Below, piece by piece: positions 29,901 through 64,000 of a stretch of 64,000 nt of DNA (its first letter is position 1; each line of letters begins with the position of its first letter). Under the pieces are notes generated by a model, which saw only the letters and a list, made by a program, of their open reading frames with translations, made no database searches and was not told the DNA's origin. Origin of the DNA: Candidatus Parcubacteria bacterium (GTDB lineage: Bacteria; Patescibacteriota; Patescibacteriia; UBA1558; GWA2-36-10); the NCBI GenBank assembly GCA_018669975.1, contig JABHSK010000005.1, positions 57,123-121,122 of the forward strand, given 5' to 3'. A program made the position numbers and the translations under genes.

Positions 29901-32900
29901 GTCCTGCAGAAACTTTTCCTGTAGTCAGTACGACTGTTACAGCATCTATTTCACAGCCGCATGTAGATATCATAGGTCTTAGGGTGATGGGCAACGATGA
30001 GCACTTGTCTATTACTGATTGGTATAAACAACATGCACCAAATCCAGAAGTACTTGGTGAGATAAAAGAAATAGATGGCTATGAGGCCATGCAAGTTGGT
30101 AATACCACTTATATAGGTGCTTTGAACATGTCAGGACTTATTTATACAAATGTTTATATAATATCCCACAATATAGGTGCTAGTGGAGACACTCGTGATA
30201 TCTATAAGCAATTTATAGAAAACATGAAGTTCAACACTAACATGCCTAGATTGGAAAATGTCTGTAATGCAGATACATCAATTATTTGTTCTAGTGATTT
30301 TGATTGTCCGGTGGGAGATTATTGTACATCTAGAGATTTAAAAATAAAACGTGATTTACAACGCCTAGGTGACTTGATGAATGTTAAAAACATGGTAGAG
30401 GAATATGGTCAATCACATAAGGCTTGTAGTCATAATAGTGCTATTGCTTGTGTAGATGACTCACCTTGTATTTTAGGAGGAGGCACCTGTGTCTCATATT
30501 ATCCATTGCTTAATGCAGGAACCTTTGTGAATGGTATGAGTAATAGTAATTGGCCATCATGGAATACTACTTTACGTACTATTTTGGGAGAGGAATTACC
30601 AGAAGATCCAATTGGTTTATTTAACGGGTGTCCACCAGGTGCTGACCCTGACACATGTTGGGATGAATTAGTTTCACCACCAGAGTTTACTTGTCCAGCT
30701 GAATCATTGATATATTTTTATAATAATGATGTTAATGTTTCGCAAGGTATAGACTATTTCTTGGGAGCCAATTTTGAGTATGATTCTAGTCCAGCTTTAC
30801 ATTTTGATCCTTCGGGGTTTAATCCGTTGACTTTTGGTTGTGATTTATATAATGGACCAGCTAGTATAACTGGTATTTGGCCAGACCCGGCTTGTCCGGT
30901 ACCACAGGATGGTATGCCACATATTTATTCTAGTTTAGATAGCCTGTGTAGTGTGGCTAGTGTTTATTCTCCAGGTGCAGTCACTATCCCTTCTTGTGGA
31001 AATGGCACCTGGGAACCAGATGGTGTTGATGGTGTGCCAAATACACCTGACGATGAAATATGTGAACCTGGTATGCAGAGAAATTTGTGTATAGAAACAG
31101 TAGTTCCGCTAGGAACGGATTGGTGGGATGCAGGAAACCACATAGGTGGTTGTAATCCTGTCGGCACAGAAGATGCCGGTGGTAATCTAATTGAGTGTAC
31201 TTGGTATGAGCCAGATCCTGCTCTAACGGCAGTAGATTGTGGAGGCTATTGTGGTAATAATACTATAGATCCAGTTGAGTCCTGTGATGGTGCAGCTGGT
31301 TTTGATGGACTTTATACTTGCTACGATCCAGATACCATGACTACTAGTACCCCTGTTTGTAATATTAATGTTTGCCAAGCTTTTTGCCCAACCGGAAACT
31401 TAGCATCCCTCTGTGGAGATGGTGCTTGGGATGCTAGCTATGAACAATGTGATGCCAGTGCTGATCCAAGCGGATTGGTAGGCTGGGATTGTGGTGTGGT
31501 GGCTACTTCAACGGTAGCTTGTAATAATTGTGCTATAGAATGTACTATCGGCGGAACTTTATATAATGGTGTATGTGGTAATGATATTATTGAGTGGCCA
31601 GAAGAATGTGAGCCAGGAATACATATTCCTCCAACAGCAGCGACTTCATCGCCGACTTATCAATATTTATGTGATCCTACTTATTGTGTTTATGATGGTG
31701 GTTATTGCGCAGATGGCATTAATCCTGGACCGTATGATTCAGGCGGCAATACTAATGAAGTGGCCATATTGATAGATGGTAGTGCTTTCTACCAACCAGA
31801 AGAATGTGATGATTTAGAATGGGATATACCACAGAGGCATAATTCAGATCAAGATTATGAATATTTATGTAATTCTTGCGTAATTGAAGGTGGCTATTGT
31901 GGTGACGGCAATCGAGATTCTGCAGCTGGTATTTCTCCTAGTCCACCAGAAGAATGTGATGATGGTAATAATTCTGAGGCAGATGTCTGTACTAATGCCT
32001 GTGAGTGGGGCTGTGAAGATGTGGCAATTGGGCCTTTTCCAAGAGCGCCAATTTTGGCTGGCTACATTTCCTCAAAGAATACCGACGATGGTTTATTGTT
32101 TAACACTACTGATGCCACAGTAGAGCTACACGCTGGAGACTCGGCTACGCTACCTCTAGGTAGTTGTCGTATCAGTGGCGATGTAGTAGTTGATGTGACT
32201 GTGCATGGTAATGATTCATATGCAGGTATAGTATTTGTTGTGGACAGGTCAAGTAGTATGAGTGGTGATATAGCTGCTGCTAAAAATGCGATCGGTTCTG
32301 CTATTGTGACAATATTTGACCGTAATCCAACTGCTCAAATTGCTATCGTTGAGTACGGAGATGACGCTTGGACAAGAATTAATTTTACAGGTTTTGAGCA
32401 GGAGAATTTATTAATTGGTAGTTTTAGGAAAACTGGTGCTATAGGAGGAGCAGTTAACCAAATTAATGCCGATAGGCCTAGTACAGACCACTCTATTGGT
32501 TTAGATAGGGCTTATGGTTTATTTAATGCTACTAGCTTTGAGAATAACATAGTTATTTTTATGACAGATGGGAGTCCAACTGGTGGTGTAACTGGGAACT
32601 GTGTTAATGGTGCTAATGTTGGTGATGCCTACGGTCGGACCTTATGTATAGCTGAAAATGATCTTAAATTTTGTAACAATCCCGCAGTAGACACGTGCGT
32701 AGATATGTTTACAGTAGCCTTTACTTCTAATGTCGGTTTGCAAGGTTTTTTAAACGCCGTTTCTTCTTCAGATTGTGTTTATTCTAATTATGGAAGATCA
32801 ACTACAGGGGGTACTTGCGGTAGTAATGGTATTGAATGTCTAAATACTTTAAATCAACGGGAAGAATGTGATGGTGGTCCAGACTGTATATCATCTGCCT

Positions 32901-33265
32901 TGCCCAACGCTTGTCAATGGTCAGGAGATAGGGTTAATGACAATAGGGCGTATTCTGGTAGTAGTCAAGCGGAGTTGGCTCAGATGTATCAGGATATATC
33001 AGGATCCATCCCTATTAATAATGTTTTACTTGCCTTGGATAATTCGGGTGCTACTACCACATTAAATGATATTGGAGTTACTTTTGATAATTCTTACCGT
33101 ATTCATACCAATGGAATTGCAACTTGCAGTGACGGCTCCACTGTTGATAATGAGCTAAATATTAGTGCTAATTTTACAGGTAATATAAATGCTTATCTAG
33201 AATTGAGCAATCCAGTTTATGAATTCTGCCATTGGTATAACTGTCCCTGGTGTTTTAATAACTAA
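23921..33265 (+). CDS. giant (3114 aa) multidomain cell-surface protein: TrbC/VirB2-like N-terminal membrane module; IPT/TIG-like domains; 3 tandem repeats of about 230 aa; FN3; Cys-rich CGDG...ECDDGN repeats (Myxococcus-type, DUF4215-like); vWA domain with MIDAS DRSSS
   Basis: Single uninterrupted 9345-nt ORF; motifs PHITAINPDNGTDGNIVTVFGYNF (IPT), PTNLQVSSVDDTQVTLTW (FN3), CGDGNRDSAAG...EECDDGNNSEADVCTNAC, FVVDRSSSMSGDIAAAKNAIG (vWA). Confidence 0.75.
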   Translation: MKKVLSIPIVTLILGYLQVNKVLAQSDILGVNGMTDTVLGTRGIEDTVASIINIVLGLLGIIAVVLIIYGGFLWMTSKGNTDQVQRAKMVIISAVIGLVIILSAYAITRFVLGALENAVGPGGGTPQQQNQNPGGALCPPPLNPGAVEVCDPFPSAATVGSAFTVGAWNIGPWDTLATSFVQFNDLAGNTAVAEIASCGANGYYWNLLYTDINTGDDYYEIRALVPALPVSLPNYDVEVHNINLANPFYTPAMQFAILSGSPAPSIFCIQPSHAATSTAVSIIGRGLGVGGQALDEIFVNAYPGGVHQPQFPVPGPVPGPTITNWADDQIDFIIPDQQISGNVTVQVDDGAGNSDTSNPVYFIVDCTNDGECASGCCPGSPGPGVYACSEEVVCTGISSAPHITAINPDNGTDGNIVTVFGYNFCDDVACAPGTVWFTDGANNPVAGILPSTLNAQCGDFWTDTAIIIGVPPTVDTGQVTMETAAAVASDNAITFTENNIEYPGICALQDGAGNPITTGFFDDGIPVHVHGIRFNNNDRITFGGFLGYNPSYLGLPTEVQADVPNSVGIADVVVTSSTEATIVSNPFPFSALAVTGGLPTISEISPTSTRIGKYTTIMGANFGTTPGDVEFWQLGVHIDDGEFTFPAQCGSHYWQHDSIVVKPPTDLILNGGNYGDFDVVVRRSGDNATSLPHPVEILAGPPGPGICLMQPDNGPAGKTINFYGDNFNTAAGAVVFHNNEFADLTNAIWGNQQVLTVPVPNNAATGPVFIRDSAGMDSNDLMFSVGACSSDTQCQNNLQGNICCPDTNGNFCDNYLGCSSINECTYGWRFTTESLLQVVGWGPVCDDSCINGTVWVDFNTEIVAADLDFNNFSILECTDSTCQNTNPGNFVTAASTFTQPAPAAAGDPWVVSFTHNAFNPNTYYLVEVNPNIQNTDGAILGNPHSWSFATGANNCDVDHINVAPASRPAYIGDVIPFGAQAYSPPSSCYPAGQPIACDAAISCSWSAWTNDGAYTTQIPTGIPESMDISADAVTLVGGTQIGAEAVQGANTFNDFGVLDITVGPNSLLGLNRQAYGPTCSDSCLNGDVWIEFDSEVTVNEDAAHFSILECTDSTCQNTVGPNQTNSTTQPVPAAVGDPWRVELNHNNFSPNTYYLVTIDGNIANNIGPLVGGTFTWSFGAGDAACDVGNLLVSPAIANVNIGDTVHYSAQPYSAPGICYPSGQAISCDAAIGCSWNAWTNDGAYTTQIPIAVDNIDILANNPTPAVGTPVGVGVTQGATTFSGVGTLNIGTGGASVFSSTGHGPTCSDSCINGLVHADFNEEPDFLPSTRIYQCDDATCTATSGPSLLVGTNTYQLMVGGDWRVRLFHTPFTPGVSYQAYVDGGTYHTYASGDAYLGNALMWSFGTGVNSCDVDRADIYPPGPDPILSTVNLGDNISYSVETYSVPGICYPGGQPIVCDASIGCILFWNANSQPGGLVNITTAQDTDSVTYNATTVGNNDTVRMRAVQNATQFLDATDVDVVTGVLPGSPNIVDHEPVALPVCINAAPTVVFDQLMDSASINSNVKVYRTGTPGPNCISPGNPTLCEVPGSFTLVADSAIPETRAIFNPDTYLATSTNHYLYVGPNTQSLDGQSLGWTTDLAFSMLEVTGDGVVDGLAWMFPTNQTVCQLSHAIITPTYDFFHCSLDDCDENDVAPGGNNEHRYTAVAYGVDGSPLNVSNYWWTNSDPSIFTIDSQTTQQIMGWPGFDNGHVTLSVSAWDNDPAITGTVGAAAGIEIFLCENPWPSANTVPWEPGPPPNPYHYSTLYCLDDGDGGFLPYLDAAVSATNPNPNGVLNAGERIFIINPSSSMGSLNLAQYQFGSLAYGRELDIDNNLSENKSWFEKIRTALWGDVKKAEGQANALPMCAPGNPTNLQVSSVDDTQVTLTWGNASSGVGPNGAVTNYNMYRREIPNGNYPGPLQGTINVPGQRIFTDNTVVTDTIYEYTVTAEASACPAETFPVVSTTVTASISQPHVDIIGLRVMGNDEHLSITDWYKQHAPNPEVLGEIKEIDGYEAMQVGNTTYIGALNMSGLIYTNVYIISHNIGASGDTRDIYKQFIENMKFNTNMPRLENVCNADTSIICSSDFDCPVGDYCTSRDLKIKRDLQRLGDLMNVKNMVEEYGQSHKACSHNSAIACVDDSPCILGGGTCVSYYPLLNAGTFVNGMSNSNWPSWNTTLRTILGEELPEDPIGLFNGCPPGADPDTCWDELVSPPEFTCPAESLIYFYNNDVNVSQGIDYFLGANFEYDSSPALHFDPSGFNPLTFGCDLYNGPASITGIWPDPACPVPQDGMPHIYSSLDSLCSVASVYSPGAVTIPSCGNGTWEPDGVDGVPNTPDDEICEPGMQRNLCIETVVPLGTDWWDAGNHIGGCNPVGTEDAGGNLIECTWYEPDPALTAVDCGGYCGNNTIDPVESCDGAAGFDGLYTCYDPDTMTTSTPVCNINVCQAFCPTGNLASLCGDGAWDASYEQCDASADPSGLVGWDCGVVATSTVACNNCAIECTIGGTLYNGVCGNDIIEWPEECEPGIHIPPTAATSSPTYQYLCDPTYCVYDGGYCADGINPGPYDSGGNTNEVAILIDGSAFYQPEECDDLEWDIPQRHNSDQDYEYLCNSCVIEGGYCGDGNRDSAAGISPSPPEECDDGNNSEADVCTNACEWGCEDVAIGPFPRAPILAGYISSKNTDDGLLFNTTDATVELHAGDSATLPLGSCRISGDVVVDVTVHGNDSYAGIVFVVDRSSSMSGDIAAAKNAIGSAIVTIFDRNPTAQIAIVEYGDDAWTRINFTGFEQENLLIGSFRKTGAIGGAVNQINADRPSTDHSIGLDRAYGLFNATSFENNIVIFMTDGSPTGGVTGNCVNGANVGDAYGRTLCIAENDLKFCNNPAVDTCVDMFTVAFTSNVGLQGFLNAVSSSDCVYSNYGRSTTGGTCGSNGIECLNTLNQREECDGGPDCISSALPNACQWSGDRVNDNRAYSGSSQAELAQMYQDISGSIPINNVLLALDNSGATTTLNDIGVTFDNSYRIHTNGIATCSDGSTVDNELNISANFTGNINAYLELSNPVYEFCHWYNCPWCFNN
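26440..28520 (+). repeat. three tandem in-frame repeats of about 690-700 bp (about 230 aa) inside the giant gene
   Basis: Recurring GPTCSDSC(I/L)NG..W.(D/E)F...ILECTDSTCQNT...GDPW...YYLV...CDV...YS.P..CYP.GQ.I.CDAAI.CSW.AWTNDGAYTTQIP, with stretches of near-identical DNA. Confidence 0.7.
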
Positions 33266-54425: not shown

Positions 54426-54453
54426 TTGACAAATTTTTTATTTATGCTATAAT
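54426..54453 (+). promoter_or_regulatory. consensus sigma70 promoter TTGACA-16-TATAAT
   Basis: TTGACA at 54426-54431, TATAAT at 54448-54453. Confidence 0.6.
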
Positions 54454-54459
54454 GCGTAA

Positions 54460-55485
54460 TCAGTCTAAAGTTAGACAACCGAACATTTTTCAATCAAACA
54501 GACCCAAGTCGCGATAAACAACGAAGGAGTTGTTAATAGAATGCGGAGCGGAGCCGCTTAACTCCGTGCGTAGTCACCCTGGAACGGCCATCAAACGGCC
54601 ACATCTTTTAAGAATCAGGGAGGGATCAATGATCTATACGCATCCACCGTAGCTATGGCTTATTTTCACTAAAGCCTCACAACGTCCGATGAGGCGGTTT
54701 AAACCTCCGATAATTTTTATCAGCTTAAAAGCTGATAAATAACAACAAGTAATAACATCGGTTTAAACCTAGGACAGCCGTTTAGCCCTTAGAACATCTT
54801 GCGCCCACCGGTACTAAGTACCTGTTGGCCCAATTAGGGCTCGACACAACCACCCGGCCATCCTGCTGCCTAGCATGGAGGAGTCACCCGATGACGAACA
54901 TTCGGCTGATGCACATGCTGCCCTTACCATTCTATTAACCCTTAACTGATTTCTCCTTCGGCGCGGCTGCCAATTTCAACACTCCGGATTCATCGACGAG
55001 CGGAATCGCCGCAACGAGCGCACTCATTTTCTACGTGCTCATACGGCGCTTTCCGGCGACGGCACACATTGCCGCCTTGCCGGACCACCTTCCGCCACCA
55101 TTTCCGGAGACGCGACGTCTTGACACCCGAGAAGAGCTGGTGAAGCTGACCAGCACTTTGCTCGGCGTACCCGTGCCCTCATTACTTACCGCCAATCAGG
55201 CGGCATTTAATAGGGAGGCACTTGCCTCAAGACGTCCGACGGCAGCCGCGCCGTCTTTCTTACCAAAAACAAGACAGACAATCGACGAGGGTCAGTGCGA
55301 CCGACAAACAGTAGACCGGACTGAATTCGCCATACATCCCATTCCGATGGGATACGGAAAGCCTAGTGCTCTACCGGCGAGCGAACTTCCTGCTCCAGCT
55401 ATTGGACATCCGCTTTACTCGTTTCTCGAGTTGTGCGCCCGGGGGGTACCTACCACTTTTGTGGAAAGGGCCCTCTTTTTTTATG
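54460..55485 (+). ncRNA. candidate large structured ncRNA: about 1-kb GC-rich (50-58%) island without a credible ORF, between a consensus promoter and a terminator-like GGGCCC hairpin plus T8; identity unresolved
   Basis: Only ORF is 55035..55490 (GTG start, no SD, Pro/Ala/Arg-rich, looks spurious); self-complementary GGTTTAAACC x2; perfect hairpin tttatcagctt-aa-aagctgataaa. Confidence 0.4.
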
Positions 55486-55587
55486 TATAAACAGTCAAAT
55501 ACTTGACTTTAATATTTCTTTATGCTATTTTATCTACGACTTTAAAGCAGCTTTTTGCTTTAAATTATTTAATTTTATTGTTTAAAT

Positions 55588-56514: not shown

Positions 56515-57201
56515 ATGTCGAAAGCCTTTTCATTTGATAATATAGAAAATCAACCCGGGCAATTAGCCCAGGAAGTTTTAAGAAATAACATAGACTCTGC
56601 TTTAGACGATTACTCTGTGCTTTTAAAAAGACGTGTTGAAGGCCAGGTAGATGAGAAGCTAGAACAACAAATACAAGAACAACGTCAAAACCTAATCCAG
56701 CTTTCACAACAGCTTGATAGCCAGTTGGAGCTGGATGATGTATTTTTTGAGAGGGTAAGCGAGTTATTGGAAGTAGCAGATAAAGGAATAGAAATTGGTA
56801 GAAAAGAACTTCAAGATAGATCAGATGGCAAGAGTAATATTGAAGCAATCATTTCTGATATGAGGGAATACGCTAATCAGCTTGCTAGAATTGACGCACA
56901 ACTATTAAATGTAGATACAGATTCTACCGAATCAGAAGAGATCATTTTGGAACTCAAGACCATGATACGAGCAATGACTAGTATGGCAGGAGAAATACAA
57001 AGAGTGATTTTATCTCTAGAAAGAGAAGATAAGGCAGATTTGATTCGAAGACAAGTAAAGATAATGAATGATTTGGTGAGTGCGATTAAGCACTTTGATG
57101 AATTAGATAAAGATATAAATAAATTAAAGAAAATAAGAGAACATTTTTATAAACATTTTGATGAAGCAATATTCTTTTATGAAGAATTAAAAGATTTATA
57201 A
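56515..57201 (+). CDS. hypothetical acidic coiled-coil protein inserted between rpsG and fusA
   Basis: 228 aa, Glu/Asp/Gln-rich, heptad-like helical sequence; no known family; sits inside the otherwise conserved str operon. Confidence 0.5.
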   Translation: MSKAFSFDNIENQPGQLAQEVLRNNIDSALDDYSVLLKRRVEGQVDEKLEQQIQEQRQNLIQLSQQLDSQLELDDVFFERVSELLEVADKGIEIGRKELQDRSDGKSNIEAIISDMREYANQLARIDAQLLNVDTDSTESEEIILELKTMIRAMTSMAGEIQRVILSLEREDKADLIRRQVKIMNDLVSAIKHFDELDKDINKLKKIREHFYKHFDEAIFFYEELKDL

Positions 57202-57233: not shown

Positions 57234-59330
57234 ATGCCCAGACAGTATCCATTAGGAAAAATTAGAAACATTGGCATCATTGCTCATATTGATGCTGGAA
57301 AAACTACCGTCACCGAACGTATCCTTTTTTATACTGGTAAAAAACATAAGATTGGTGAAGTCCACGAAGGTGAAGCTGAGATGGACTGGATGGAGCAGGA
57401 GAAAGAAAGAGGTATTACTATTACCTCAGCTGCTACTACTTGTTTTTGGGATCTACCAGATTGGTTAGGTGGTGACAAGGCTAACATTAATATTATTGAT
57501 ACCCCAGGCCACGTTGATTTTACTGTAGAGGTAGAGAGATCTTTACGTGTTTTAGATGGCGGTGTGATTGTTTTTGATGGTGTAGCTGGTGTAGAGCCAC
57601 AATCTGAAACTGTTTGGAGACAAGCTGATAAATACAATGTACCTAGAATAGCCTTTATCAACAAGATGGATAGAATGGGTGCAGATTTTTATTATGATTT
57701 AGATACTATTCACGAAAGATTAACTAAGATTGCTCATCCAATGCAGCTACCTATTGGTGCTGCTGAAACCTTTGAAGGTATTATTAATCTTTTGGAAAAA
57801 GAAGCTTGGTTTTATTTAGATGAAGATGGTAAGGAATTTGAAAAACGTGATATTCCAGAAGACTTGAAAGATAAAGTAGAAGAATATCGTGGTAAATTGA
57901 TTGAAGCCATTGTTGAAAATGATGAAGCTTTGATGGAAAAATATCTTGGCGGTGAAGAACCAGCTCTTGAAGATTTGAAAAAAGTTTTACGTAAGGCAGT
58001 GATCGATAATAAGATTGTACCTGTTTTTGTGGGCTCCGCACTTAAGAATAAAGGTGTGCAATTCTTGTTGGATGCTATTGTTGCTTATTTACCATCACCA
58101 CTTGATTTACCCGACATTGAAGGTACTGAGCCACGTAACGAAGAAAGTAAAGTTATTGTAAAAGCATCTGATGATGAACCGTTTACTGGTTTAGCTTTTA
58201 AAGTAGCTACCGATCCCTATGTTGGTAGATTAACTTTTGTCAGAGTTTATTCTGGCATTTTACAGTCAGGATCTTATGTTTATAATACTAACTCAGATAA
58301 GAAAGAAAGAATTGGTCGTATTTTAAGAATGCACGCTAATTCTCGTGAAGAAGTAAGTGAAGTGTATGCTGGTGATATTGTAGCCGTGGTTGGTCTTAAA
58401 AACACCACCACTGGTCATACGATAGTTGACCCAAGTCGACATGTTGTTTTGGAGAGTATGGAATTCCCTGATCCAGTTATTTTTGTGGCTGTTGAGCCAA
58501 AGACTAAACAAGATCAAGAAAAGATGGGACTAGCTTTGAGTAAGCTTACTGAAGAAGATCCTACCTTTACTGTCCGTACAGATGAAGAGACCAACCAGAC
58601 AATTATTGGTGGTATGGGAGAACTACACTTGGATATTATCATTGATCGTATGAAACGAGAGTTTTCTGTCGAAGCCAATGTTGGTGCTCCGCAGGTTGCT
58701 TTCAAAGAGACTATTGGAGTTCAGGCTGAAGCAGAAGGTAAATACGTCAAGCAGTCAGGTGGTCGTGGTCAATATGGTCATTGTTGGTTGAGGTTAGAGC
58801 CAATGGAAAGAGGTGCAGGTTTTGAATTTAGTGATGAAATCAAAGGCGGCTCTATTCCTAAAGAATATATTCCAGCTATTGAAAAAGGTATTAAGCAAAC
58901 AATGGCTAACGGAATTTTAGCTGGTTATCAAATTCAAGATGTTAGGGCTGTCGTTTACGATGGTAGTTATCATGAGGTTGATTCTTCTGAAGCAGCGTTT
59001 AAAGTAGCTGGTTCAATGGCTTTTAAAGCAGCCTTTAATAAAGCAAATCCTTCTGTCCTAGAACCGATTATGAAAGTAGAAGCTGTCACACCTGAACAAT
59101 ATATGGGTGACGTTATTGGTGATTTGAATTCTAAGAGAGGACAGGTTTCAGAAATGACAGATAGGGCTGGCGCTAAAGTTATTAATGCTGAAGTGCCACT
59201 TTCAGAGATGTTTGGCTATGCTACATCCCTTCGTTCTATGACGCAGGGTCGTGCTAGTTATTCTATGGAATTTGCCAAATATCAGGAAGTACCGAAGAGT
59301 GTAGAAGAAGAGTTGAAGAAGAAAGCGTAA
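57234..59330 (+). CDS. fusA: elongation factor G
   Basis: [22 protein letters not shown]; full five-domain length. Confidence 0.95.
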
Positions 59331-59400
59331 TTGTGATATAATATATAGAGCTGGTTTAGGCCAGTGTAATATATAAAATTTATTAGTAACACCCAGTAAA

Positions 59401-59595
59401 ATGCCACAAGGAAAAGTAAAGTGGTTCAATGACACCAAGGGTTTCGGTTTTATCGAACAAGATGATGGAGGTGCAGACCTCTTCGTTCACAAGACCGAAG
59501 TTGAAGGTGGTTCTTTGCAAGAAGGACAAGTTGTTGAATACGAAGTCGGCGAAGGTCCAAAAGGTCCTAACGCCACCAATGTAAAAGTTGCCTAA
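59401..59595 (+). CDS. cold-shock protein (CspA family)
   Basis: [15 protein letters not shown] (RNP1) and VFVHK (RNP2). Confidence 0.9.
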
Positions 59596-59618
59596 AAACA
59601 ATTGATATATTGAAAAAT

Positions 59619-59646
59619 TAAACCCCGCTTAGGCGGGGTTTTTTTG
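59619..59646 (+). terminator. intrinsic terminator after csp
   Basis: aaccccgcc-taa-ggcggggtt plus T8 (exact stem offsets approximate). Confidence 0.8.
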
Positions 59647-59656
59647 TTTATAAATA

Positions 59657-59690
59657 AAAACCCCACCGAATTGAATTCGGTGGGGAATAA
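59657..59690 (-). terminator. intrinsic terminator for the minus-strand gene 59694..60836
   Basis: ccccaccgaattgaattcggtgggg hairpin with a U-run on the minus strand. Confidence 0.7.
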
Positions 59691-59693
59691 AGA

Positions 59694-60836
59694 TCAAACA
59701 ATCTGGACAGCAAAGCCCTGGTCTACCATGCCTCGCATCATTGTAACCGCTGGATCATTGTCAGCTGGGACAATGACAGTAGTATCCCTAAATTGACTGG
59801 GATAGTCATGGTTGTTTAGGAAGGTTAGCTTGAGACCAGTGTTAATAATCAGACCGGGATTATAGATGCTGTTTTGTAGCACCGGCGTTAGTAGTTTGCC
59901 AGCTCTTTTTTCGTGATACTCTCGATCACAGAATAGTTTGAAGGCCAACAATTTGCCAGCAGAGAAGAAGGCTACCGCGATATTAGGTAGACTTTCTTGA
60001 ATTTTCTCACCGCTGTGAGCAATGACACCGATATTACTGACAACTTCACGACTATCATCCAGTAGGTAGGCAAAGCGGAGCGGACCTATGGGTGATTTGA
60101 TGCCATTCTCCAAAGGGAAGAAGCGCAAATGAGTGCCACGACGATTATTGTCGTATTTACCTTTCTTGTTGTAGCAGAGCATGAGCAGTTTTTCCGTATC
60201 CTTGAAGCTGACGCGGGTGCTGAGCTTGGATTCATTGGTGATACGACGAATTGATCCGCAAAACACACCGCGTTCATAGGCCACAAAGACTTCACCAGTC
60301 AGTAGATTGAGAACGATAGCAAAACGAATCTGGTTGTCTTTGAGGAAAGTGACGGAAGCATTTGGTGCCTGTACGCGGGCTAGTGGTTTGCCGATACGTT
60401 TGAGTTCGGCGTCAAAAATTTGACCCATAGTCTGGCAAGAGTCACCAAATTCCTCGATCATTCTTTCTAGATGAGATGATCCATCTATTGGATCAGAGAT
60501 AATAATCGGAGTATTGGTTTCGATGCGACGGTCTTTGGGTACACGACCACGTTCTTCGGTGATGACTACACCTGATTGACGGTAGATGCGTTGGAAGAGG
60601 GAATAGTGACCAAAGCATTGTTCACCGCCAAGGCAGATGATATCTTCGGCTACCACATCAAACCAACGTGTGTCCTTTCCATCTTTACGGGAATAGAGTG
60701 TCTGAGTTTCAGCGTCCATTTCGCTGATGTGGCGGATAGCATCTTTGACAGATAGGCGACATAGCGTGTTGTACATTCGTCGCATAATAGTCAGGGAGCC
60801 ATTGAGCATCATGGTGTCTTTGTTGGGGGGAGCCAT
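59694..60836 (-). CDS. inositol-monophosphatase/FBPase-superfamily-like phosphatase with an N-terminal extension (GC-rich islet gene)
   Basis: VVITEERG (metal-binding EE) about 40 aa before IIISDPIDGSSHLE (IMPase-like DPxDG[ST] motif); start set at the internal MAPPNK, which has GGAGGT 5 nt upstream (ORF track start 60902 has no SD). Confidence 0.4.
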   Translation of the reverse strand: MAPPNKDTMMLNGSLTIMRRMYNTLCRLSVKDAIRHISEMDAETQTLYSRKDGKDTRWFDVVAEDIICLGGEQCFGHYSLFQRIYRQSGVVITEERGRVPKDRRIETNTPIIISDPIDGSSHLERMIEEFGDSCQTMGQIFDAELKRIGKPLARVQAPNASVTFLKDNQIRFAIVLNLLTGEVFVAYERGVFCGSIRRITNESKLSTRVSFKDTEKLLMLCYNKKGKYDNNRRGTHLRFFPLENGIKSPIGPLRFAYLLDDSREVVSNIGVIAHSGEKIQESLPNIAVAFFSAGKLLAFKLFCDREYHEKRAGKLLTPVLQNSIYNPGLIINTGLKLTFLNNHDYPSQFRDTTVIVPADNDPAVTMMRGMVDQGFAVQIV

Positions 60837-60968
60837 TTTATTACCTCCGGCTCGGGTGATTGTTTGTGGGTTGTGAAGGTTCGATTGATAAATTTTTAAC
60901 ATAAATACATACTCTGGTCAAACCAGGAAAAATAAAATACCTACACTGCAAGTGTAGGTATCAGGTTG

Positions 60969-61136
60969 TTAGTCTTTTTTTGTTTCATTGGCGATAGTCT
61001 CATGTTCGCCGTCCAGTTTACGAATTTTCGTCTCAATGTCCATGACTAGACAATCCCAGAGTGAGATACCAAATGGGTCTGCCTGCAGAGCAGTGATAGT
61101 TTCGGGTTCAAGCCCGCCACGTACGATTTGGCACAT
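60969..61136 (-). CDS. small hypothetical protein (55 aa), not in the ORF track
   Basis: ATG preceded by AAGGGAGA at about 6-nt spacing; sequence MCQIVRGGLEPETITALQADPFGISLWDCLVMDIETKIRKLDGEHETIANETKKD. Confidence 0.3.
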   Translation of the reverse strand: MCQIVRGGLEPETITALQADPFGISLWDCLVMDIETKIRKLDGEHETIANETKKD

Positions 61137-61349
61137 CGATGTCTCCCTTCTATCCGTGAAGGAATTTAAAAGAACGTAATATTAAAAATAATAAAATTAT
61201 CTTAAACTGTCAAATAAAAAAAAGATCTCGATTCAAGGGAACCGAGTCTTTCTCGAGGGGTAGCGTTTACCCCTTTTAAACTCACTATTACTAGCGAGCT
61301 TAAAAGGGGCCCCGACAAGAAGTCAGGGCAGGGAACAGGTGGCGTGTTA

Positions 61350-61451
61350 TTAGGGCAGTTTGATGCCCATCGCCTGTTGTTCCCCTGAGGGAATTTCGAG
61401 CAATCCCATTGTGATTGCCAGTCCTTCTATGAGAGCTTTGATCAATTTCAT
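61350..61451 (-). CDS. small hydrophobic peptide (33 aa) with a perfect SD and a structured leader
   Basis: AAGGAGGTGATC-ATG; MKLIKALIEGLAITMGLLEIPSGEQQAMGIKLP; followed on the minus strand by hairpins (agggg-taaacgcta-cccct; ctcga...tcgag) and T8. Confidence 0.3.
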   Translation of the reverse strand: MKLIKALIEGLAITMGLLEIPSGEQQAMGIKLP

Positions 61452-61454
61452 GAT

Positions 61455-61560
61455 CACCTCCTTTTGGGGTTGAAGAAATTTTCCCTCCTGAATGCACCAA
61501 CTAGTGATACTCTCAGGAGGGAGCCAGTCTGAGACTGGCTTGAAAAAATTGTATGTAGAG
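61455..61560 (-). promoter_or_regulatory. structured 5' leader of the 33-aa peptide gene containing an anti-SD element
   Basis: On the minus strand: perfect hairpin gccagtc-tca-gactggc, then ctccctcctga...tcaggaggga (10-bp stem) immediately upstream of the true SD AAGGAGG; the CCCUCCU segment could alternatively sequester the SD. Confidence 0.35.
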
Positions 61561-61894
61561 AATTTGGGTGCAGAAGGTGGAGTTGAACCACATCCATTTG
61601 GACCGGTAGGTCATTGATTTGACGGGAACACCCATCCCTTAAACCGGCAACTGCCCAACATAAGTTGCTCTACAAAGAGCGGAACTGGAGGTGAGATTGC
61701 CCAACTTTGGACCTAAGCCCGTTGAAACCAGGTTACTAGGTTGAAATTATTGAGCCGGAGCCCTATAAAATCAGCTAATATAATCTGTTCTCGCCCCTCC
61801 AAATCTACTCTTTGCAAAAACTTTATTTTTCTAAGTTCTTTATTGTAATAGAGCATTATAGCATATATTTCATATCTTGTCAAGGGTATAAAAG

Positions 61895-61937
61895 GGTTAA
61901 AAAAAAGACCGTCGAGCGATGAACTCGACGGTGTAAT
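61895..61937 (-). terminator. intrinsic terminator for the SPFH-like gene
   Basis: On the minus strand: accgtcgag-ttcatcg-ctcgacggt plus T8. Confidence 0.8.
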
Positions 61938-61939
61938 AA

Positions 61940-62731
61940 TCAGGCCACCCTAGCCAGTAGATTAGATTTACCATTCCAGACAAAGTGTACAGACAGGAAT
62001 TCGTTGGTCTCAGTACTCCATTTATTTTCCAAGATATCAAAGATAGACATACCTACTGCTTGAGCAATTATTTGCTGCTTGATGTAGTCAACGTAGTGCT
62101 TTTCCAGGGCATGGGAGTCAACCTGGCGAGGTTGCCGACCATAGTTGAGTATCAATTTGATGGTGCCATTGAGATTGAGGCGCTTGCCTTCCTGACAGAT
62201 AATCTCCAAGTCTTTGAGATGTATCTTTGGTGTGGTGATAACGCGCAAGGCATAACTTCCCCCAGGACGTAGGTGGAATTGTTCACCGCCATAGTATAAT
62301 TGCTGTTTGAATCGGATTACATCACCTTCTGTAACTAGGCAGCACCTCCATACGCGGTACATTAGTAGTATCTGCAAGCCAAAAGTAGCTAGAGCGATAA
62401 TAGGAAGTTTACTGTTGAATTCGGGACTGACAAGGGGAGTTAGAAATAACATAAAGCTGACAAATATATTGCAGACAGCTAGTGGCCAACCTAGACCATG
62501 GGCAATAATGCCCAGGATTTTGCTGGGGTATTGGCAACGTGAAATACTGCGTTGCATGACCAGTAGTAGTGACGACATTAGCATGCAGAAGCCTAGTCCA
62601 CCGAGAGCTAGTCTAAAAATGGTAGAAAATGACCAATCTGTCGGATTTTCTTCGGTTGGCGTAAAGGTGCCATTAAGTAATAGGCCAAGGCCAAGGAAAA
62701 TAACAAATACGAACAACATCATCCATTTCAT
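61940..62731 (-). CDS. membrane protein: N-terminal 4-TM region plus C-terminal SPFH/band-7-like domain (GC-rich islet gene)
   Basis: AGGAGA SD; hydrophobic N-terminal half; C-terminal half YALRVITTPKIHLKDLEIICQEGKRLNLNGTIKLILNY...IFDILENK resembles the SPFH core pattern. Confidence 0.4.
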   Translation of the reverse strand: MKWMMLFVFVIFLGLGLLLNGTFTPTEENPTDWSFSTIFRLALGGLGFCMLMSSLLLVMQRSISRCQYPSKILGIIAHGLGWPLAVCNIFVSFMLFLTPLVSPEFNSKLPIIALATFGLQILLMYRVWRCCLVTEGDVIRFKQQLYYGGEQFHLRPGGSYALRVITTPKIHLKDLEIICQEGKRLNLNGTIKLILNYGRQPRQVDSHALEKHYVDYIKQQIIAQAVGMSIFDILENKWSTETNEFLSVHFVWNGKSNLLARVA

Positions 62732-62888
62732 GATTTTTTCTCCTGTTTTTTGAGTGGTTTTGATTGGGTAGGAACGATATTAAGATAAGCTAATATATCA
62801 ATTTCGTAGTTTTATGTCAATTGTGTATAAAATTGTTTGACAATAGCTGATTTTTACCATAAAATAAGCCTACTTTTAAGATAAATTT

Positions 62889-63263
62889 ATGGCAAATTAT
62901 AAACAAATGGACAAGGTTTTAGAGCTAGCAGCCAAAACTGGTGATAAGGTCATTGTATTATCAGAAAATCACGACCCTTATGTAGTGATGCCAGTCAAGG
63001 AGTATGAGGTTTTATTACAAGGTTCATCCACTGTAGATGGTCTAACTGAGGAGCAATTATTAGATAAAATAAACCGTGATATTGCTGTTTGGAAATCATC
63101 TCAAGATGACTTGGAAGATTACAATTTAGATCAATTTAAGGTGGAGTCACTTAAAAAAGTTGATGTAAGTAAAAAGGCGGTTGATAATAAAGTTCAGGAG
63201 CCAAAAATTGAGAAAGTTGAAGTCGAAGAAGAGGATAGGTATTATATTGAGCCTGTAGACTAG
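62889..63263 (+). CDS. hypothetical protein with a Phd/YefM-antitoxin-like N-terminal domain and an acidic/Lys-rich C-terminal tail
   Basis: MDKVLELAAKTGDKVIVLSENHDPYVVMPVKEYEVLL fits the YefM/Phd N-terminal pattern; no toxin gene adjacent. Confidence 0.35.
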   Translation: MANYKQMDKVLELAAKTGDKVIVLSENHDPYVVMPVKEYEVLLQGSSTVDGLTEEQLLDKINRDIAVWKSSQDDLEDYNLDQFKVESLKKVDVSKKAVDNKVQEPKIEKVEVEEEDRYYIEPVD

Positions 63264-63452
63264 TATTTTAGCTAACATTAGCTCATAAGTACTAAAAACA
63301 CAGATTATGCCCCAGGGGGCTTGCAAAAATTTAAGAACAGTGCTATAATCTGTGTGTTTTAAAAAACAATTATTAAGTAATTAATTTAAAAGATAGTTGG
63401 GTTACAAAGGCCCTTTATTTGTAGGGTCACTATCAAAGGAGAAACATAAAAA

Positions 63453-64000
63453 ATGGCAGAAGTTTTTAAAAGAGAAAAACCCCACATAAATGTAGGTACC
63501 ATTGGTCACGTTGATCACGGTAAAACTACATTAACTGCAGCTATTCTAAAAGTTTTAGCAACTGCTGGTGGTGTTGCTCAACAAAAGGACGTTGATCAAA
63601 TTGACAACGCTCCAGAAGAAAAAGAGCGTGGTATTACTATTGCTACTGCTCACGTAGAGTATGAAAGTGAAGCAAGACACTATGCTCATGTTGACTGTCC
63701 AGGTCATGCTGACTATGTCAAAAATATGATCACTGGTGCAGCTCAAATGGATGGTGCTATCTTGGTTGTTTCAGCCGCTGATGGTCCTATGCCCCAAACT
63801 AGAGAACACATCTTACTTGCTCGTCAAGTTGGAGTTCCTTACATTGTTGTTTTCTTAAACAAGATGGATCAGGTTGATGATCCAGAACTAGTTGATCTAG
63901 TTGAGGAAGAAATTAGGGATTTATTGAAAAAATATGAATTCCCTGGTGACGATGTGCCTATTATCAGAGGAACAGCTTTGAAAGCTCTAGAAGATCCTGC
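63453..64000 (+). CDS. tuf: elongation factor Tu (N-terminal part; 3' end beyond the window)
   Basis: [35 protein letters not shown]; AAAGGAG SD. Confidence 0.95.

Follow-up and report, generated by a model that had tools for sequence, protein, structure and literature searches.

Hot spots of accessory gene turnover, flanked by core genes, occur in bacterial chromosomes, and genomic islands integrate into tRNA and tmRNA genes. In MALAT1-mascRNA of mammals, in the tRNA-like domain of tmRNA and in YrlA, a bacterial Y-RNA-like RNA, a tRNA-like 3' module is used for processing. We analysed a 64,000-nucleotide stretch of DNA from a Candidatus Parcubacteria bacterium ("the window"), in which fusA and tuf are separated by genes that lie mostly on the opposite strand. 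An earlier note had read this segment as a horizontally acquired cassette. We conclude that the fusA/csp-tuf segment is probably an ancient variable slot of this Parcubacteria clade and not a recently inserted cassette.

Gene content and composition of the fusA-tuf interval

The features of the interval are listed in Table 1. The genes, strands, ribosome-binding sites and terminators in the earlier note were confirmed on the sequence, and each minus-strand unit has its own Shine-Dalgarno sequence and intrinsic-terminator-like hairpin. An RNA gene was overlooked in that description. The contig is 844 kb long, and the genomes concerned are very small.

Table 1. Features of the fusA-tuf interval, in window coordinates
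Feature	Position	Strand	Remarks
fusA end	59330
csp (cold-shock protein gene)	59401-59595	+	Pfam CSD, E 2e-24
csp terminator	59620-59641
Intrinsic-terminator-like hairpin, phosphatase unit end	59685-59661	-	11-bp stem, 7 GC pairs, then T-run
402-aa ORF	59694-60902	-	longest frame of phosphatase gene
Phosphatase gene, probable extent	59694..60839	-	381 aa from Met22; GC3 0.46
Terminator-like hairpin, 55-aa unit	60962-60936	-
55-aa ORF	60969-61136	-
Promoter-like site, 55-aa gene	61213-61185	-
Terminator-like hairpin, end of RNA + 33-aa transcript	61246-61227	-
33-aa ORF	61350-61451	-
Two hairpins between RNA and peptide gene	61483..61540	-	CCCTCC...GGAGGG at 61483-61521; AGCCAGTC...GACTGGCT at 61522-61540
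RNA domain 2, tRNA-like module	61563..61658	-	from alignments
RNA domain 1	61667..61820	-	154-nt conserved 5' fold
RNA gene promoter	61883-61855	-	TTGACA-17-TATAAT, upstream TG; 12/12 sigma-70 match
Terminator-like hairpin, 263-aa unit	61932-61908	-	kept in L140 and L141
263-aa ORF	61940-62731	-
263-aa gene promoter	62820-62792	-
124-aa gene promoter	62837-62865
124-aa ORF	62889-63263	+
tuf start	63453

The composition of the interval is foreign-looking. The GC anomaly that had been reported is real, at a lower value than the 48-52% then given: GC content is 43.6% at 59650-62800 and 42.0% at 59650-63300, compared with 37.5% for the whole window, and the richest 400-nt window within the interval reaches 47%. 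Positions 59650-62800 are the most GC-rich 3.15-kb stretch in the window; equal-size windows outside it average 37.3% (sd 1.9, maximum 41.6%). The deviation is strong in the GC content of third codon positions (GC3), which ranges from 0.45 to 0.53 in the four minus-strand ORFs, versus 0.289 ± 0.042 (maximum 0.41) for 47 other ORFs. The 124-aa gene lies outside this islet and is host-like (GC 35%, GC3 0.30).

Synteny with related genomes

The interval was compared with about 20 Parcubacteria/Patescibacteria contigs, the 124-aa proteins of which range down to 48% identity. Wherever the locus was examined in these relatives, the 124-aa gene and 0.6-5 kb of mostly opposite-strand genes lie between fusA and tuf. 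The separation is therefore clade-wide, and the proposal that a local insertion had broken the str operon does not hold. In 17 metagenome loci, retrieved via the 124-aa protein and mapped by tblastn and nhmmer, the fusA-tuf spacing is 1-5 kb throughout, and a structured RNA was found, always antisense, in every one with enough sequence. This RNA occupies the fusA-tuf locus in 15 species. More distant Parcubacteria retain the order fusA, variable genes, 124-aa gene, tuf; among these distant loci the RNA is present in L163 and absent from L162 and L164.

Gene order is identical in the window species and its strain variants, and the gene content of the interval changes from one related species to another. 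A species with a 71%-identical phosphatase likewise carries the RNA and phosphatase between fusA and tuf, with different neighbours. Among the sampled relatives the phosphatase gene occurs in only four species, the 263-aa gene in four loci (the window, L140, L141 and L146, of which L141 and L146 are nearly identical) and the 55-aa gene in three loci; csp, found in the window species and L015 only, is an accessory occupant of the interval. Of all elements in the stretch 59650-62800, the RNA alone is found again in nearly every close relative. It has variable genes on both sides, including 263-aa, 96-aa, 67-aa and 147-aa genes upstream. RNA-bearing intervals of the relatives are mostly 3-6 GC points above their own loci, the exceptions being two that are about 1 point above and one short fragment that is below. 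The earlier note had named shared gene content and composition in relatives as evidence against its reading, and part of this is found: the separation of fusA and tuf is common to them, the GC rise to most of those with the RNA, and the genes differ.

The 124-aa gene is a core gene and the fixed right-hand border of the variable interval: in every locus examined, the window included, tuf is the next gene downstream. The protein is 63% identical in L004 and has 897 homologues across Patescibacteria. Its N-terminal segment of about 45 residues is Phd/YefM-like; a conserved segment follows in the centre, and the acidic tail ends in YYIEPVD. The Pfam PF02604 score is 21.1 bits (E 2.7e-4), under the 29.8 cut-off. 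Some homologues are annotated as Phd/YefM; the gene differs from these type II antitoxins in its central segment and tail, its fixed place before tuf and the absence of an adjoining toxin gene. Its description as a Phd/YefM-like orphan is at odds with this conservation and host-like GC.

Accessory genes of the interval

Translation of the 402-aa ORF probably begins at Met22 (60839), because GGAGGT precedes this codon and the homologues (56 clusters) are 377-382 aa long. Conserved metal-binding motifs are E95-E96 in ...TEExG... and D116-P117-x-D119-x-S. Structure prediction upholds the IMPase/FBPase-like assignment of the earlier note: the AF2 model has a pLDDT of 93, and Foldseek matches it to the archaeal IMPase/FBPase AF2372 (E 9.5e-11). 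The target-normalised TM is 0.69 to 6b65_A, and of 147 PDB chains at E<=0.001 the top-listed all belong to the IMPase/FBPase superfamily. Sequence profiles score below threshold, with a remote NCBIfam PRK12676 match to the N-terminal part (E 1e-8; 34.7 bits vs 264) and a Pfam score of 12.4 bits vs 27. On the model, the protein has the IMPase/FBPase fold and would be a Mg-dependent phosphatase. The predicted fold is that of archaeal class IV FBPase/IMPase (Archaeoglobus fulgidus AF2372, Methanocaldococcus jannaschii MJ0109), and fold and metal-binding motifs are shared with the wider IMPase/SuhB/CysQ/FBPase superfamily. Unlike the archaeal enzymes, the window protein is about 120 residues longer and belongs to its own small family, from DPANN archaea and one Parcubacteria clade; its identity to solved members is 7-15%.

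Cross-domain transfer of the phosphatase is likely, because the relatives for which a source gives a taxon name (four) or which adjoin an archaeal marker gene (one more) are DPANN archaea. In a rough neighbour-joining distance tree the Parcubacteria members form one clade nested within the family. The gene would have come from DPANN archaea into the ancestor of the four sampled Parcubacteria species. In archaeal loci it matches host GC, in bacterial ones it does not; since the sampled archaeal genes are not GC-rich, archaeal composition leaves the high bacterial GC3 unexplained. The gene is broken into 72-aa and 254-aa ORFs in L155, as expected if the phosphatase is dispensable. Horizontal acquisition, as the earlier note had it, thus finds support in the phosphatase and in the foreign-looking composition, and not as a single cassette, since the genes vary between species.

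The 263-aa protein has four N-terminal transmembrane helices (AF2 helices 2-23, 35-64, 71-96 and 109-130) and a C-terminal domain of about 130 aa, modelled with low confidence. It is rare: clustering at 90% identity gives only 3 clusters, and a search of 1.84 billion representatives found no more than 7 proteins at E<=1e-3. An SPFH identity was not confirmed: the protein has no Pfam or PDB profile match, and one remote relative gives a sub-threshold Band_7 score (14.7 bits vs the 23.6 cut-off). It resembles SPFH/band-7 proteins in its N-terminal membrane anchor, in the mixed strand/helix domain that follows in the low-confidence model and in a "YPGExF..WP"-type motif opening the soluble domain; those proteins have one transmembrane helix where this has four. 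The 55-aa protein begins MCQIVRGGLEPETITALQADPFGISLWDC..., is kept in L015 (67% identity) and L141 (92% over 39 aa), and gave no hit in the family search.

A conserved structured RNA gene

Between the 55-aa and 263-aa genes lie roughly 800 nt that contain no long ORF; they are a conserved structured RNA gene. Its promoter is kept in every species with the RNA, and the columns TTGACAA...TATGCTATA(A/C)T are invariant or nearly so across 14 species. Domain 1 is closed by a helix of roughly 20 bp, the top of which (UUGGAG/CUCCA) is invariant, and contains a junction box GAGAACAG, a hairpin GAUUUUAUNGGG...CUCAAUNAUUUCA with tandem U.U and a UUCG-capped hairpin. RNAalifold found 25 of 43 pairs compensatory. 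In a 53-pair model 27 pairs are compensatory and 92.8% of cells are paired, as against 33-47% when the partners were slid; none of 500 shuffles equalled the observed values. Folding z-scores are -3.2 and -3.9. The covariance model scores 136.6 bits on the minus strand vs 29 on the plus strand, finds a single copy in the window and matches L163 out of sample (86.5 bits); an invariant G.U pair fixes the strand of the RNA. Searches of Rfam 15 and with ARAGORN returned no recognised family, and the gene matches no catalogued RNA family. To judge from sequence, its product would be a stable, abundant small RNA with the ends and processing predicted here.

Domain 2 consists of an acceptor-like stem, a CCGG/CCGG stem around two hairpins and a T-arm G-TTCAACT-C, which is followed by 7 nt, one more base and CCA, the tRNA register. 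A motif scan found the T-arm in six species; most of the species with domain 1 lack the module or have something else in its place. When four sequences were folded to a consensus, the acceptor stem, one hairpin and the T-arm were retained, with 4 compensatory pairs. ARAGORN found nothing in domain 2, and the Rfam tRNA-Sec match to it is only 13.4 bits. The tRNA-like end probably marks the RNA for processing or stabilisation by RNase P and the CCA-adding enzyme. At the 3' end of a larger structured RNA, MALAT1-mascRNA, the tRNA-like domain of tmRNA and YrlA likewise have the G-TTCRANY-C T-arm, the acceptor-like stem and the N-CCA in tRNA register, which is encoded here in three species. Unlike them, the module has neither anticodon arm nor D-arm, and Rfam models of tRNA, tmRNA and YrlA did not match the RNA. 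It also differs from tmRNA in lacking a tag reading frame and in being contiguous rather than split, and from YrlA in not being enclosed by a closing helix.

The RNA is followed by the gene for a 33-aa peptide (MKLIKALIEGLAITMGLLEIPSGEQQAMGIKLP), preceded by AAGGAGGTGA. This gene is probably co-transcribed with the RNA, because no separate promoter-like site lies between them. Its L015 homologue differs mainly at third codon positions and by conservative changes, and L148 has a related peptide ending ...EQQxMGI(K/N)(L/I)(P), as does L153, where it comes directly behind the RNA. Among the aligned sequences inspected, the CCCTCC...GGAGGG hairpin also follows the RNA in L015, L148 and L161, and partly in L153. 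In roughly half of the species a small ORF comes 15-40 nt past domain 1; its product is a membrane peptide (46-78 aa), a peptide like the 33-aa one or a 147-aa protein.

Alternative explanations

Small ORFs at this distance (in L151, L152, L153, L154, L156, L157 and L160), several of them encoding peptides that are hydrophobic, as type I toxins are, suggest that domain 1 might be a cis-acting 5' leader of small-peptide mRNAs and not an independent small RNA. Such a leader could sense a signal in the manner of a riboswitch or form the structured 5' part of an mRNA resembling those of type I toxins. The predicted sharing of transcript and terminator by the RNA and the 33-aa peptide in the window and L015 fits this reading, which we regard as possible but rather doubtful. 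The downstream ORFs are non-homologous between species, whereas domain 1 is kept almost base for base. In L163 and L161 the RNA stands alone with terminators and no ORF before them; in L004 and L155 hairpins follow it, and the next small ORF of L004 has its own promoter. The long closing helix is stable, in contrast to the short, switchable P1 of riboswitches, no Rfam riboswitch matched, and an antisense partner gene is not evident.

The position of a tRNA-like module, with T-arm and acceptor stem, next to species-dependent downstream cargo (the 33-aa, 55-aa and phosphatase genes) of foreign-looking composition raises the prospect of one or several genomic islands integrated site-specifically at the 3' end of the RNA gene. 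This is improbable: the window interval has no ORF for an integrase or recombinase and none is evident in those of the relatives, neither a repeat of the RNA 3' end nor a convincing direct repeat was found flanking the interval, the RNA has variable genes upstream as well as downstream, and content also varies in species without the module.

The reading of the earlier note, a stress/abortive-infection cassette (SPFH-like membrane protein, small hydrophobic peptides, phosphatase and orphan antitoxin) inserted as one block, accommodates the anomalous GC and GC3, the insulated opposite-strand units and the weak Band_7 and Phd/YefM scores, but is very improbable, since its genes do not travel together, the operon break is clade-wide, the 124-aa gene is core, archaeal phosphatase homologues sit in ordinary, differing surroundings among metabolic and housekeeping genes, a PADLOC scan gave no hits and searches for phage, plasmid and IMG/VR relatives found none. 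Altogether, nothing found for the interval points to defence, a phage, a plasmid, an integrase or att sites.

A probable old variable slot and its closest parallels

On its right the variable slot has a fixed border, the 124-aa core gene, with tuf always next. In the sub-clade of the window it holds a strongly promoted, antisense gene for a predicted structured RNA, with a conserved 5' domain and, in six species, a tRNA-like 3' module. In some species the transcript would also carry a small peptide gene. Around the RNA gene, comparison of the loci indicates that small self-contained transcription units, each with its own promoter, ribosome-binding site and terminator, have been gained and lost between species; those of the window are the RNA with its trailing 33-aa peptide, the 55-aa protein, the rare 263-aa membrane protein and the IMPase/FBPase-fold gene. 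Turnover may proceed by homologous recombination through the very conserved flanks, fusA and tuf. In most species the GC rise could come either from a shared pool of foreign genes or from frequent recombination, to which GC-biased gene conversion may add.

In its conserved flanks (fusA, the 124-aa gene and tuf), mosaic content, deviant composition and absence of mobility genes, the slot resembles core-gene-flanked hot spots of accessory turnover. It differs from the usual hot spots in lying within a gene string that ranks among the most conserved in bacteria, in occurring in very small genomes and in being anchored by a conserved RNA gene.

Gene content and composition of the fusA-tuf interval

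The DNA between fusA and tuf carries csp, four ORFs on the minus strand (402, 55, 33 and 263 aa, all between csp and tuf) and one ORF of 124 aa on the plus strand, also between csp and tuf, in agreement with the map drawn in the earlier note. As was also stated there, a Shine-Dalgarno sequence and a terminator-like hairpin accompany every unit of the minus strand; terminator-like sites in the region number 23, against 7.8 ± 3.0 in shuffled sequences. The minus strand is divided into four separate transcription units. One of these, here called the RNA unit, opens with a perfect promoter (TTGACA-17-TATAAT with TG) that is followed by about 600 nt without a long ORF, and the 33-aa ORF lies at its end, behind AAGGAGGTGA. 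A weak match to the cspA thermoregulator RNA spans csp and its leader (36 bits, where the gathering threshold is 78; E = 1.6 × 10-6).

The cargo of the slot is compositionally deviant. GC content from 59650 to 62800 is 43.6%, compared with 37.5% for the window, so that the elevation described earlier stands but its magnitude does not; the highest value for any 400 nt of the islet is at most 47%, below the figures first given. Even so, no other 3.15 kb of the window is as GC-rich; the excess over equal-size windows elsewhere is about 3.4 standard deviations. In the minus-strand ORFs the signal is much stronger at synonymous sites than in overall GC: their GC3 values are 0.46, 0.45, 0.53 and 0.46, against 0.289 ± 0.042 (maximum 0.41) for 47 other ORFs. 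The 124-aa gene has host composition and lies outside the GC islet.

Positions of features in the window and at related loci (L numbers denote related loci compared with the window)
Feature	Position	Strand	Remarks
3114-aa ORF	23921-33265	+	
Promoter after the M50 peptidase gene	54426-54453	+	12/12 consensus
Insert between the M50 peptidase gene and rpsL	54426-55490	+	
228-aa ORF	56515-57201	+	between rpsG and fusA
fusA	57234-59330		ORF map
cspA thermoregulator match	59187-59646	+	sub-threshold
csp	59401-59595		ORF map
Phosphatase unit	terminator 59685-59661	minus	gene, then terminator
55-aa unit	promoter-like site 61213-61185; terminator 60962-60936	minus	gene between these sites
RNA unit	promoter 61883-61855; terminator 61246-61227	minus	
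CCCTCC-...-GGAGGG hairpin	61483-61521	minus	
RNA domain 2	61563-61658	minus	tRNA-like
RNA domain 1	61667-61820	minus	covariance-model match
Two-domain RNA	61563-61850	minus	candidate
263-aa unit	promoter 62820-62792; terminator 61932-61908	minus	gene between these sites
tuf	starts at 63453		ORF map
Split phosphatase homologue	L155 546-1676	minus	72-aa and 254-aa ORFs
LSxNxSIWG peptides	L160 7455-7595; L152 466-645; L151 1065-1217	minus	46-59 aa
145-155-aa family	L148 7367-7810; L150 6402-6869; L156 2273-2713; L160 6640-7077; L161 6835-7281	minus	by BLAST
145-155-aa family	L153; L157; L164 6431-6871		by eye

Synteny of the interval among relatives

A comparison of gene order with that of related genomes, which the earlier note had proposed as a check, was run here. 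By its identical proteins the window is assigned to contigs of up to 844 kb that are labelled Candidatus Parcubacteria. In a species with a 71%-identical phosphatase (the product of the 402-aa ORF), the gene likewise lies between fusA and tuf on the opposite strand, with different small genes beside it and a gene-free gap of about 880 nt. The 124-aa protein served as a clade-specific handle for fetching 17 metagenome loci, which were mapped by tblastn and nhmmer. Wherever a locus has enough sequence, the order runs M50 peptidase, rpsL, rpsG, fusA, variable DNA, 124-aa gene, tuf and rpsJ, with 0.6-5 kb of variable DNA between fusA and the 124-aa gene. More distant Patescibacteria, with 124-aa proteins at 48-58% identity, keep the frame.

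No protein family is universal in the variable part of the mapped loci. The phosphatase occurs in four species (the window, L015, L004/L159 and L155), the 263-aa gene at four loci (the window, L140 and the nearly identical L141 and L146), the 55-aa gene at three and csp at two, the window species and L015 only. Proteins of about 145-155 aa that start M..L.ELL..., often adjoining the 124-aa gene, are the commonest occupants of the slot; BLAST places them at five loci, and the window species has none. The intervals of RNA-carrying relatives are mostly elevated in GC (for example 46.4 vs 40.6%, 44.1 vs 38.4% and 43.5 vs 37.1%), except that two exceed their loci by only about one point and one short fragment has slightly less GC than its locus.

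Because relatives and distant Patescibacteria share the same frame, the separation of fusA from tuf is old and clade-wide, and the interval, with its turnover of genes, acts as a slot and not as a cassette inserted in one piece. The proposal that a single cassette had broken into the str operon is at odds with this clade-wide separation. Judged by gene order, the interval is a clade-wide variable slot. It combines deviant composition with variable presence among relatives, as an island does, and the islet as such is of a known kind, an accessory-gene hot spot, in an unusual place.

A predicted structured RNA gene in the slot

When the ORF-poor stretch of the window was aligned with the 880-nt gap of the 71% species, the promoter proved identical, and long identical blocks were found separated by compensatory changes, a pattern that a third species confirms. 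The RNAs of the two species fold well below shuffled controls (z = -3.2 and -3.9). By nhmmer every related locus has the element, which is antisense to the str genes throughout. RNAalifold applied to 13 distinct sequences of the 5' domain (domain 1) returned a closed three-way structure with compensatory changes at 25 of its 43 pairs. In an extended structure of 53 pairs, 92.8% of cells are paired, against 33-47% when the partners are slid by 1-3 columns, and the compensatory pairs number 27, against 2-7 in the slid controls. None of 500 shuffles reached any observed measure, a count that is not a probability because the sequences are all related; the slid controls keep this relatedness and are the fairer comparison.

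A covariance model finds a single copy of domain 1 in the window (136.6 bits, against 29 bits on the other strand). Out of sample, it matches L163, a relative labelled Komeilibacteria, at 86.5 bits and with further compensatory changes, and it has no match in two more distant Parcubacteria, the archaeal loci or the viral loci. Invariant parts of the domain are the top of the closing helix (UUGGAG/CUCCA), the junction box GAGAACAG, a 13-bp hairpin, GAUUUUAUNGGG...CUCAAUNAUUUCA, that has two U.U mismatches, and another hairpin capped by UUCG. The RNA gene of the slot, then, has both a consensus promoter and the support of covariation; its taxonomic breadth, like that of the phosphatase, is judged from metagenome contigs and a few source-given names.

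In six species domain 1 is followed by a second domain, made up of an acceptor-like stem, inner hairpins and a T-arm. The 7-nt T-arm loop, TTCRANY, is closed by G-C in all six (the window, L140, L004, L155, L148 and L150). Beyond the T-arm come 7 nt, one base and then, in three species, CCA, which is the layout of a tRNA 3' end; the three that encode CCA are the window, L140 and L004. L004, L155 and L148 have an acceptor stem of 7 bp, and the window and L140 one of 4-5 bp. The alignments of domain 2 contain two inner hairpins with non-conserved loops, and neither an anticodon arm nor a D arm. L163 has as its second domain a different fold of several hairpins, with terminators after it.

The main alternative to a small RNA in its own right, and in our judgement a less likely one, is that the element is the 5' leader of small-peptide mRNAs. 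Small ORFs directly follow domain 1 in other species, and in the six it is the tRNA-like domain that does so. Peptides ending ...EQQxMGI(K/N)(L/I)(P) also occur in species that are more distant, in one case immediately after the RNA, and at the protein level the 55-aa and 33-aa products are conserved in one or two relatives.

Two further features lie downstream of the RNA. Membrane peptides of 46-59 aa with a shared C-terminal motif, LSxNxSIWG, begin 15-40 nt past domain 1 in three species, where the RNA transcript could be dual-function or a leader. A long hairpin, CCCTCC-...-GGAGGG, is found in the window, L015, L148, L161 and, in part, L153; in the window it comes just ahead of the ribosome-binding site of the 33-aa ORF, and it might have a part in processing or in the control of translation.

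As to the identity of the RNA, Rfam 15 gave no match at gathering thresholds in the whole 64-kb window or in four related loci searched whole, and permissive filters on the 400 nt from 61500 to 61900 gave nothing relevant at E ≤ 10. Among the Rfam models the best score for domain 2 is that of tRNA-Sec, 13.4 bits where the threshold is 47 (E = 8.8), and ARAGORN finds no tRNA or tmRNA gene in the window or in 22 loci. The 16-mer GGAGGGGCGAGAACAG has at least 119 chance matches among genome contigs, in unrelated high-GC genomes, with no true homologue among the matches listed. The literature on structured RNAs of Parcubacteria and Patescibacteria and on tRNA-like non-coding RNAs yielded nothing on this locus.

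Several identities of the RNA were rejected. A role as partner of the phosphatase was discarded on two counts: the archaeal homologues have upstream gaps of 80-210 nt that lack the RNA, and the phosphatase is missing from most RNA-bearing species. A tmRNA would have split acceptor strands and a tag reading frame, neither of which was found in the domain 2 alignments, where no frame is conserved. RNase P RNA, SRP RNA, 5S rRNA and 6S RNA were rejected because their conserved motifs or architecture are missing and Rfam gives no match; the T-box and other riboswitches, YrlA and the large RNAs GOLLD, ROOL, OLE and raiA likewise have no Rfam match. With 15 sequences from one clade, the RNA is best described as a well-supported candidate for a new class, and not yet as an established class.

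Fold and affinities of the phosphatase

Homologues of the phosphatase are 377-382 aa long and align from Met22 of the 402-aa ORF, which is preceded by GGAGGT, so that the real product is probably 381 aa. Sequence search assembles a family of 56 clusters, without Pfam domains, whose source-named members are one Parcubacteria bacterium and archaea of the Nanoarchaeota, Nanoarchaeia, Woesearchaeota and Aenigmarchaeota. The AF2 model is confident (pLDDT 93, pTM 0.93) and, with Foldseek, supports the two-domain alpha/beta sandwich of inositol monophosphatase, bearing out the earlier description of the protein as IMPase/FBPase-like. The top-listed Foldseek matches in the PDB are all IMPase, SuhB, FBPase, histidinol-phosphate phosphatase or bisphosphate nucleotidase, the best being the archaeal dual FBPase/IMPase AF2372 (E = 9.5 × 10-11).

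In the metal-binding motifs (EE of ...GEE.G... and DP(I/V)D(G/x)(T/S)), E95, E96, D116, P117 and D119 are invariant and S115 nearly so among 31 sequences of the family; the C-terminal D352 would be the equivalent of the third motif. The curated thresholds are missed (Pfam PF00459, 12.4 bits against 27; NCBIfam PRK12676, 34.7 against 264), although the sub-threshold NCBIfam match is to the enzyme class of AF2372. The protein is a superfamily-level relative and not a member of a named family, and it adds a small new branch to the IMPase superfamily.

The neighbourhoods of three archaeal homologues (59-62% identity) are ordinary and differ from one another: one with glycerol-3-phosphate dehydrogenase and NUDIX genes, one with a DNA glycosylase, and one with His-tRNA synthetase, M24 peptidase, kinase and phosphoglucomutase genes and a thermosome gene close by. 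In a neighbour-joining tree the four Parcubacteria sequences form one clade inside the family. The GC content of the gene is host-like in the archaeal loci and about 9 points above the host in the bacteria. The protein thus has a predicted IMPase fold and groups with archaeal sequences. At L155 the homologue is split into two ORFs, which could be a pseudogene or an assembly error and would fit a dispensable accessory gene.

Other genes of the slot, defence and mobility

The 263-aa protein has four predicted transmembrane helices and a C-terminal domain; its AF2 model averages a pLDDT of 51, with residues 131-263 below 50, too poor for fold comparison. It is very rare: clustering at 90% identity gives three clusters, and 1.84 billion representatives include seven proteins at E ≤ 1 × 10-3. 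Band_7 (PF01145) has no match to it at E ≤ 1 and a sub-threshold match (14.7 bits, cut-off 23.6) to one of six remote relatives. No SPFH protein came up when PDB sequences were searched with a profile; the SPFH assignment is putative.

The 124-aa protein has 897 homologues across Patescibacteria, and its gene is always directly before tuf. For it, too, a profile search of PDB sequences gave nothing relevant. It had been called a Phd/YefM-like orphan; as part of a type II toxin-antitoxin module it fails on two points: the match is sub-threshold (21.1 bits against 29.8) and covers residues 8-44 only, and no co-transcribed toxin gene adjoins it. Its place upstream of tuf is fixed in all loci. On its own upstream side the neighbouring unit is divergent: in the window the 263-aa membrane-protein gene, in relatives either the RNA gene or a different variable gene of the minus strand.

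The reading of the slot as a stress or abortive-infection module found no support, PADLOC-DB giving no family at E ≤ 1 for the five proteins. PHROGs gave nothing below E 0.1. The phosphatase, the membrane protein, the RNA motif and the DNA have no relatives in the phage and plasmid collections, which gave no match, or in IMG/VR; IMG/VR was searched with profiles of the two proteins, and its viral contigs with a 23-base gapped RNA motif, which had no match, and with the 16-mer, which had chance matches only. No ORF or domain of an integrase or other mobility gene is present in 59300-63500, and none is evident in the relatives' intervals. Searches for att-like direct repeats around the interval yielded only short imperfect matches (13-30 nt, 65-100% identity), none at the borders of the RNA gene.

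Other features of the window

Directly after the M50 peptidase gene, a second consensus promoter precedes about 1 kb of 52-61% GC, without a credible ORF or Rfam match, that ends at GGGCCC...T-run just before the rpsL promoter. This insert folds at -364 kcal/mol, against -282 ± 8 kcal/mol in shuffles (z = -10), and is a candidate for a large structured RNA or a non-coding mobile element. The same site holds different GC-rich inserts of 0.9-2.2 kb in other species and only 125-200 nt in three. Inside the str operon, an acidic 228-aa ORF without a family match lies between rpsG and fusA; since the spacing there is only about 15-90 nt in all other related species, it is a second species-specific insertion, in the same orientation as the operon. 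The single 3114-aa ORF, with a GC content of 41% and a GC3 of only 0.235, deviates most in tetranucleotide usage within the window, more so than the islet.

Discussion

Even the rpsL-rpsG-fusA-tuf string can house a long-lived slot for accessory genes, and annotators should consider such slots before calling islets recent insertions or defence islands. Turnover in the slot may proceed by homologous recombination through the conserved flanks, and the high GC3 could stem either from frequent recombination with GC-biased conversion or from a shared foreign gene pool. For the phosphatase, the findings are read as a single transfer from archaea to bacteria of a putative metabolic enzyme that the recipients can do without. 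It would add a well-supported case of gene sharing between candidate-phyla-radiation bacteria and DPANN archaea, which resemble each other in lifestyle.

The genomes of Parcubacteria and the rest of the candidate phyla radiation are tiny, most of these bacteria are uncultured, and to our knowledge very few non-coding RNAs have been described from them. The consensus promoters, the fixed position between fusA and tuf and the clear covariation make the RNA a strong candidate for a new functional class. We tentatively suggest that the two-domain RNA belongs to an undescribed class of abundant small RNA in this Parcubacteria clade, with a 3' tRNA mimic that hands the transcript to RNase P and the CCA-adding enzyme. 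The reasons for considering this reading are that the gene is fixed between two elongation-factor genes, that the 5' domain has an invariant helix resembling a Shine-Dalgarno/anti-Shine-Dalgarno pair and an invariant U.U hairpin, and that the 3' end would look like a tRNA to the tRNA-processing machinery. The product would be a stable small RNA, with the tRNA-like end acting as a processing signal, and that end gives a concrete biochemical handle, RNase P cleavage. If this is true, the RNA might act in translation or ribosome quality control in minimal-genome organisms, and, as an RNA with a tRNA-mimic 3' end, it would be a bacterial counterpart of MALAT1-mascRNA.
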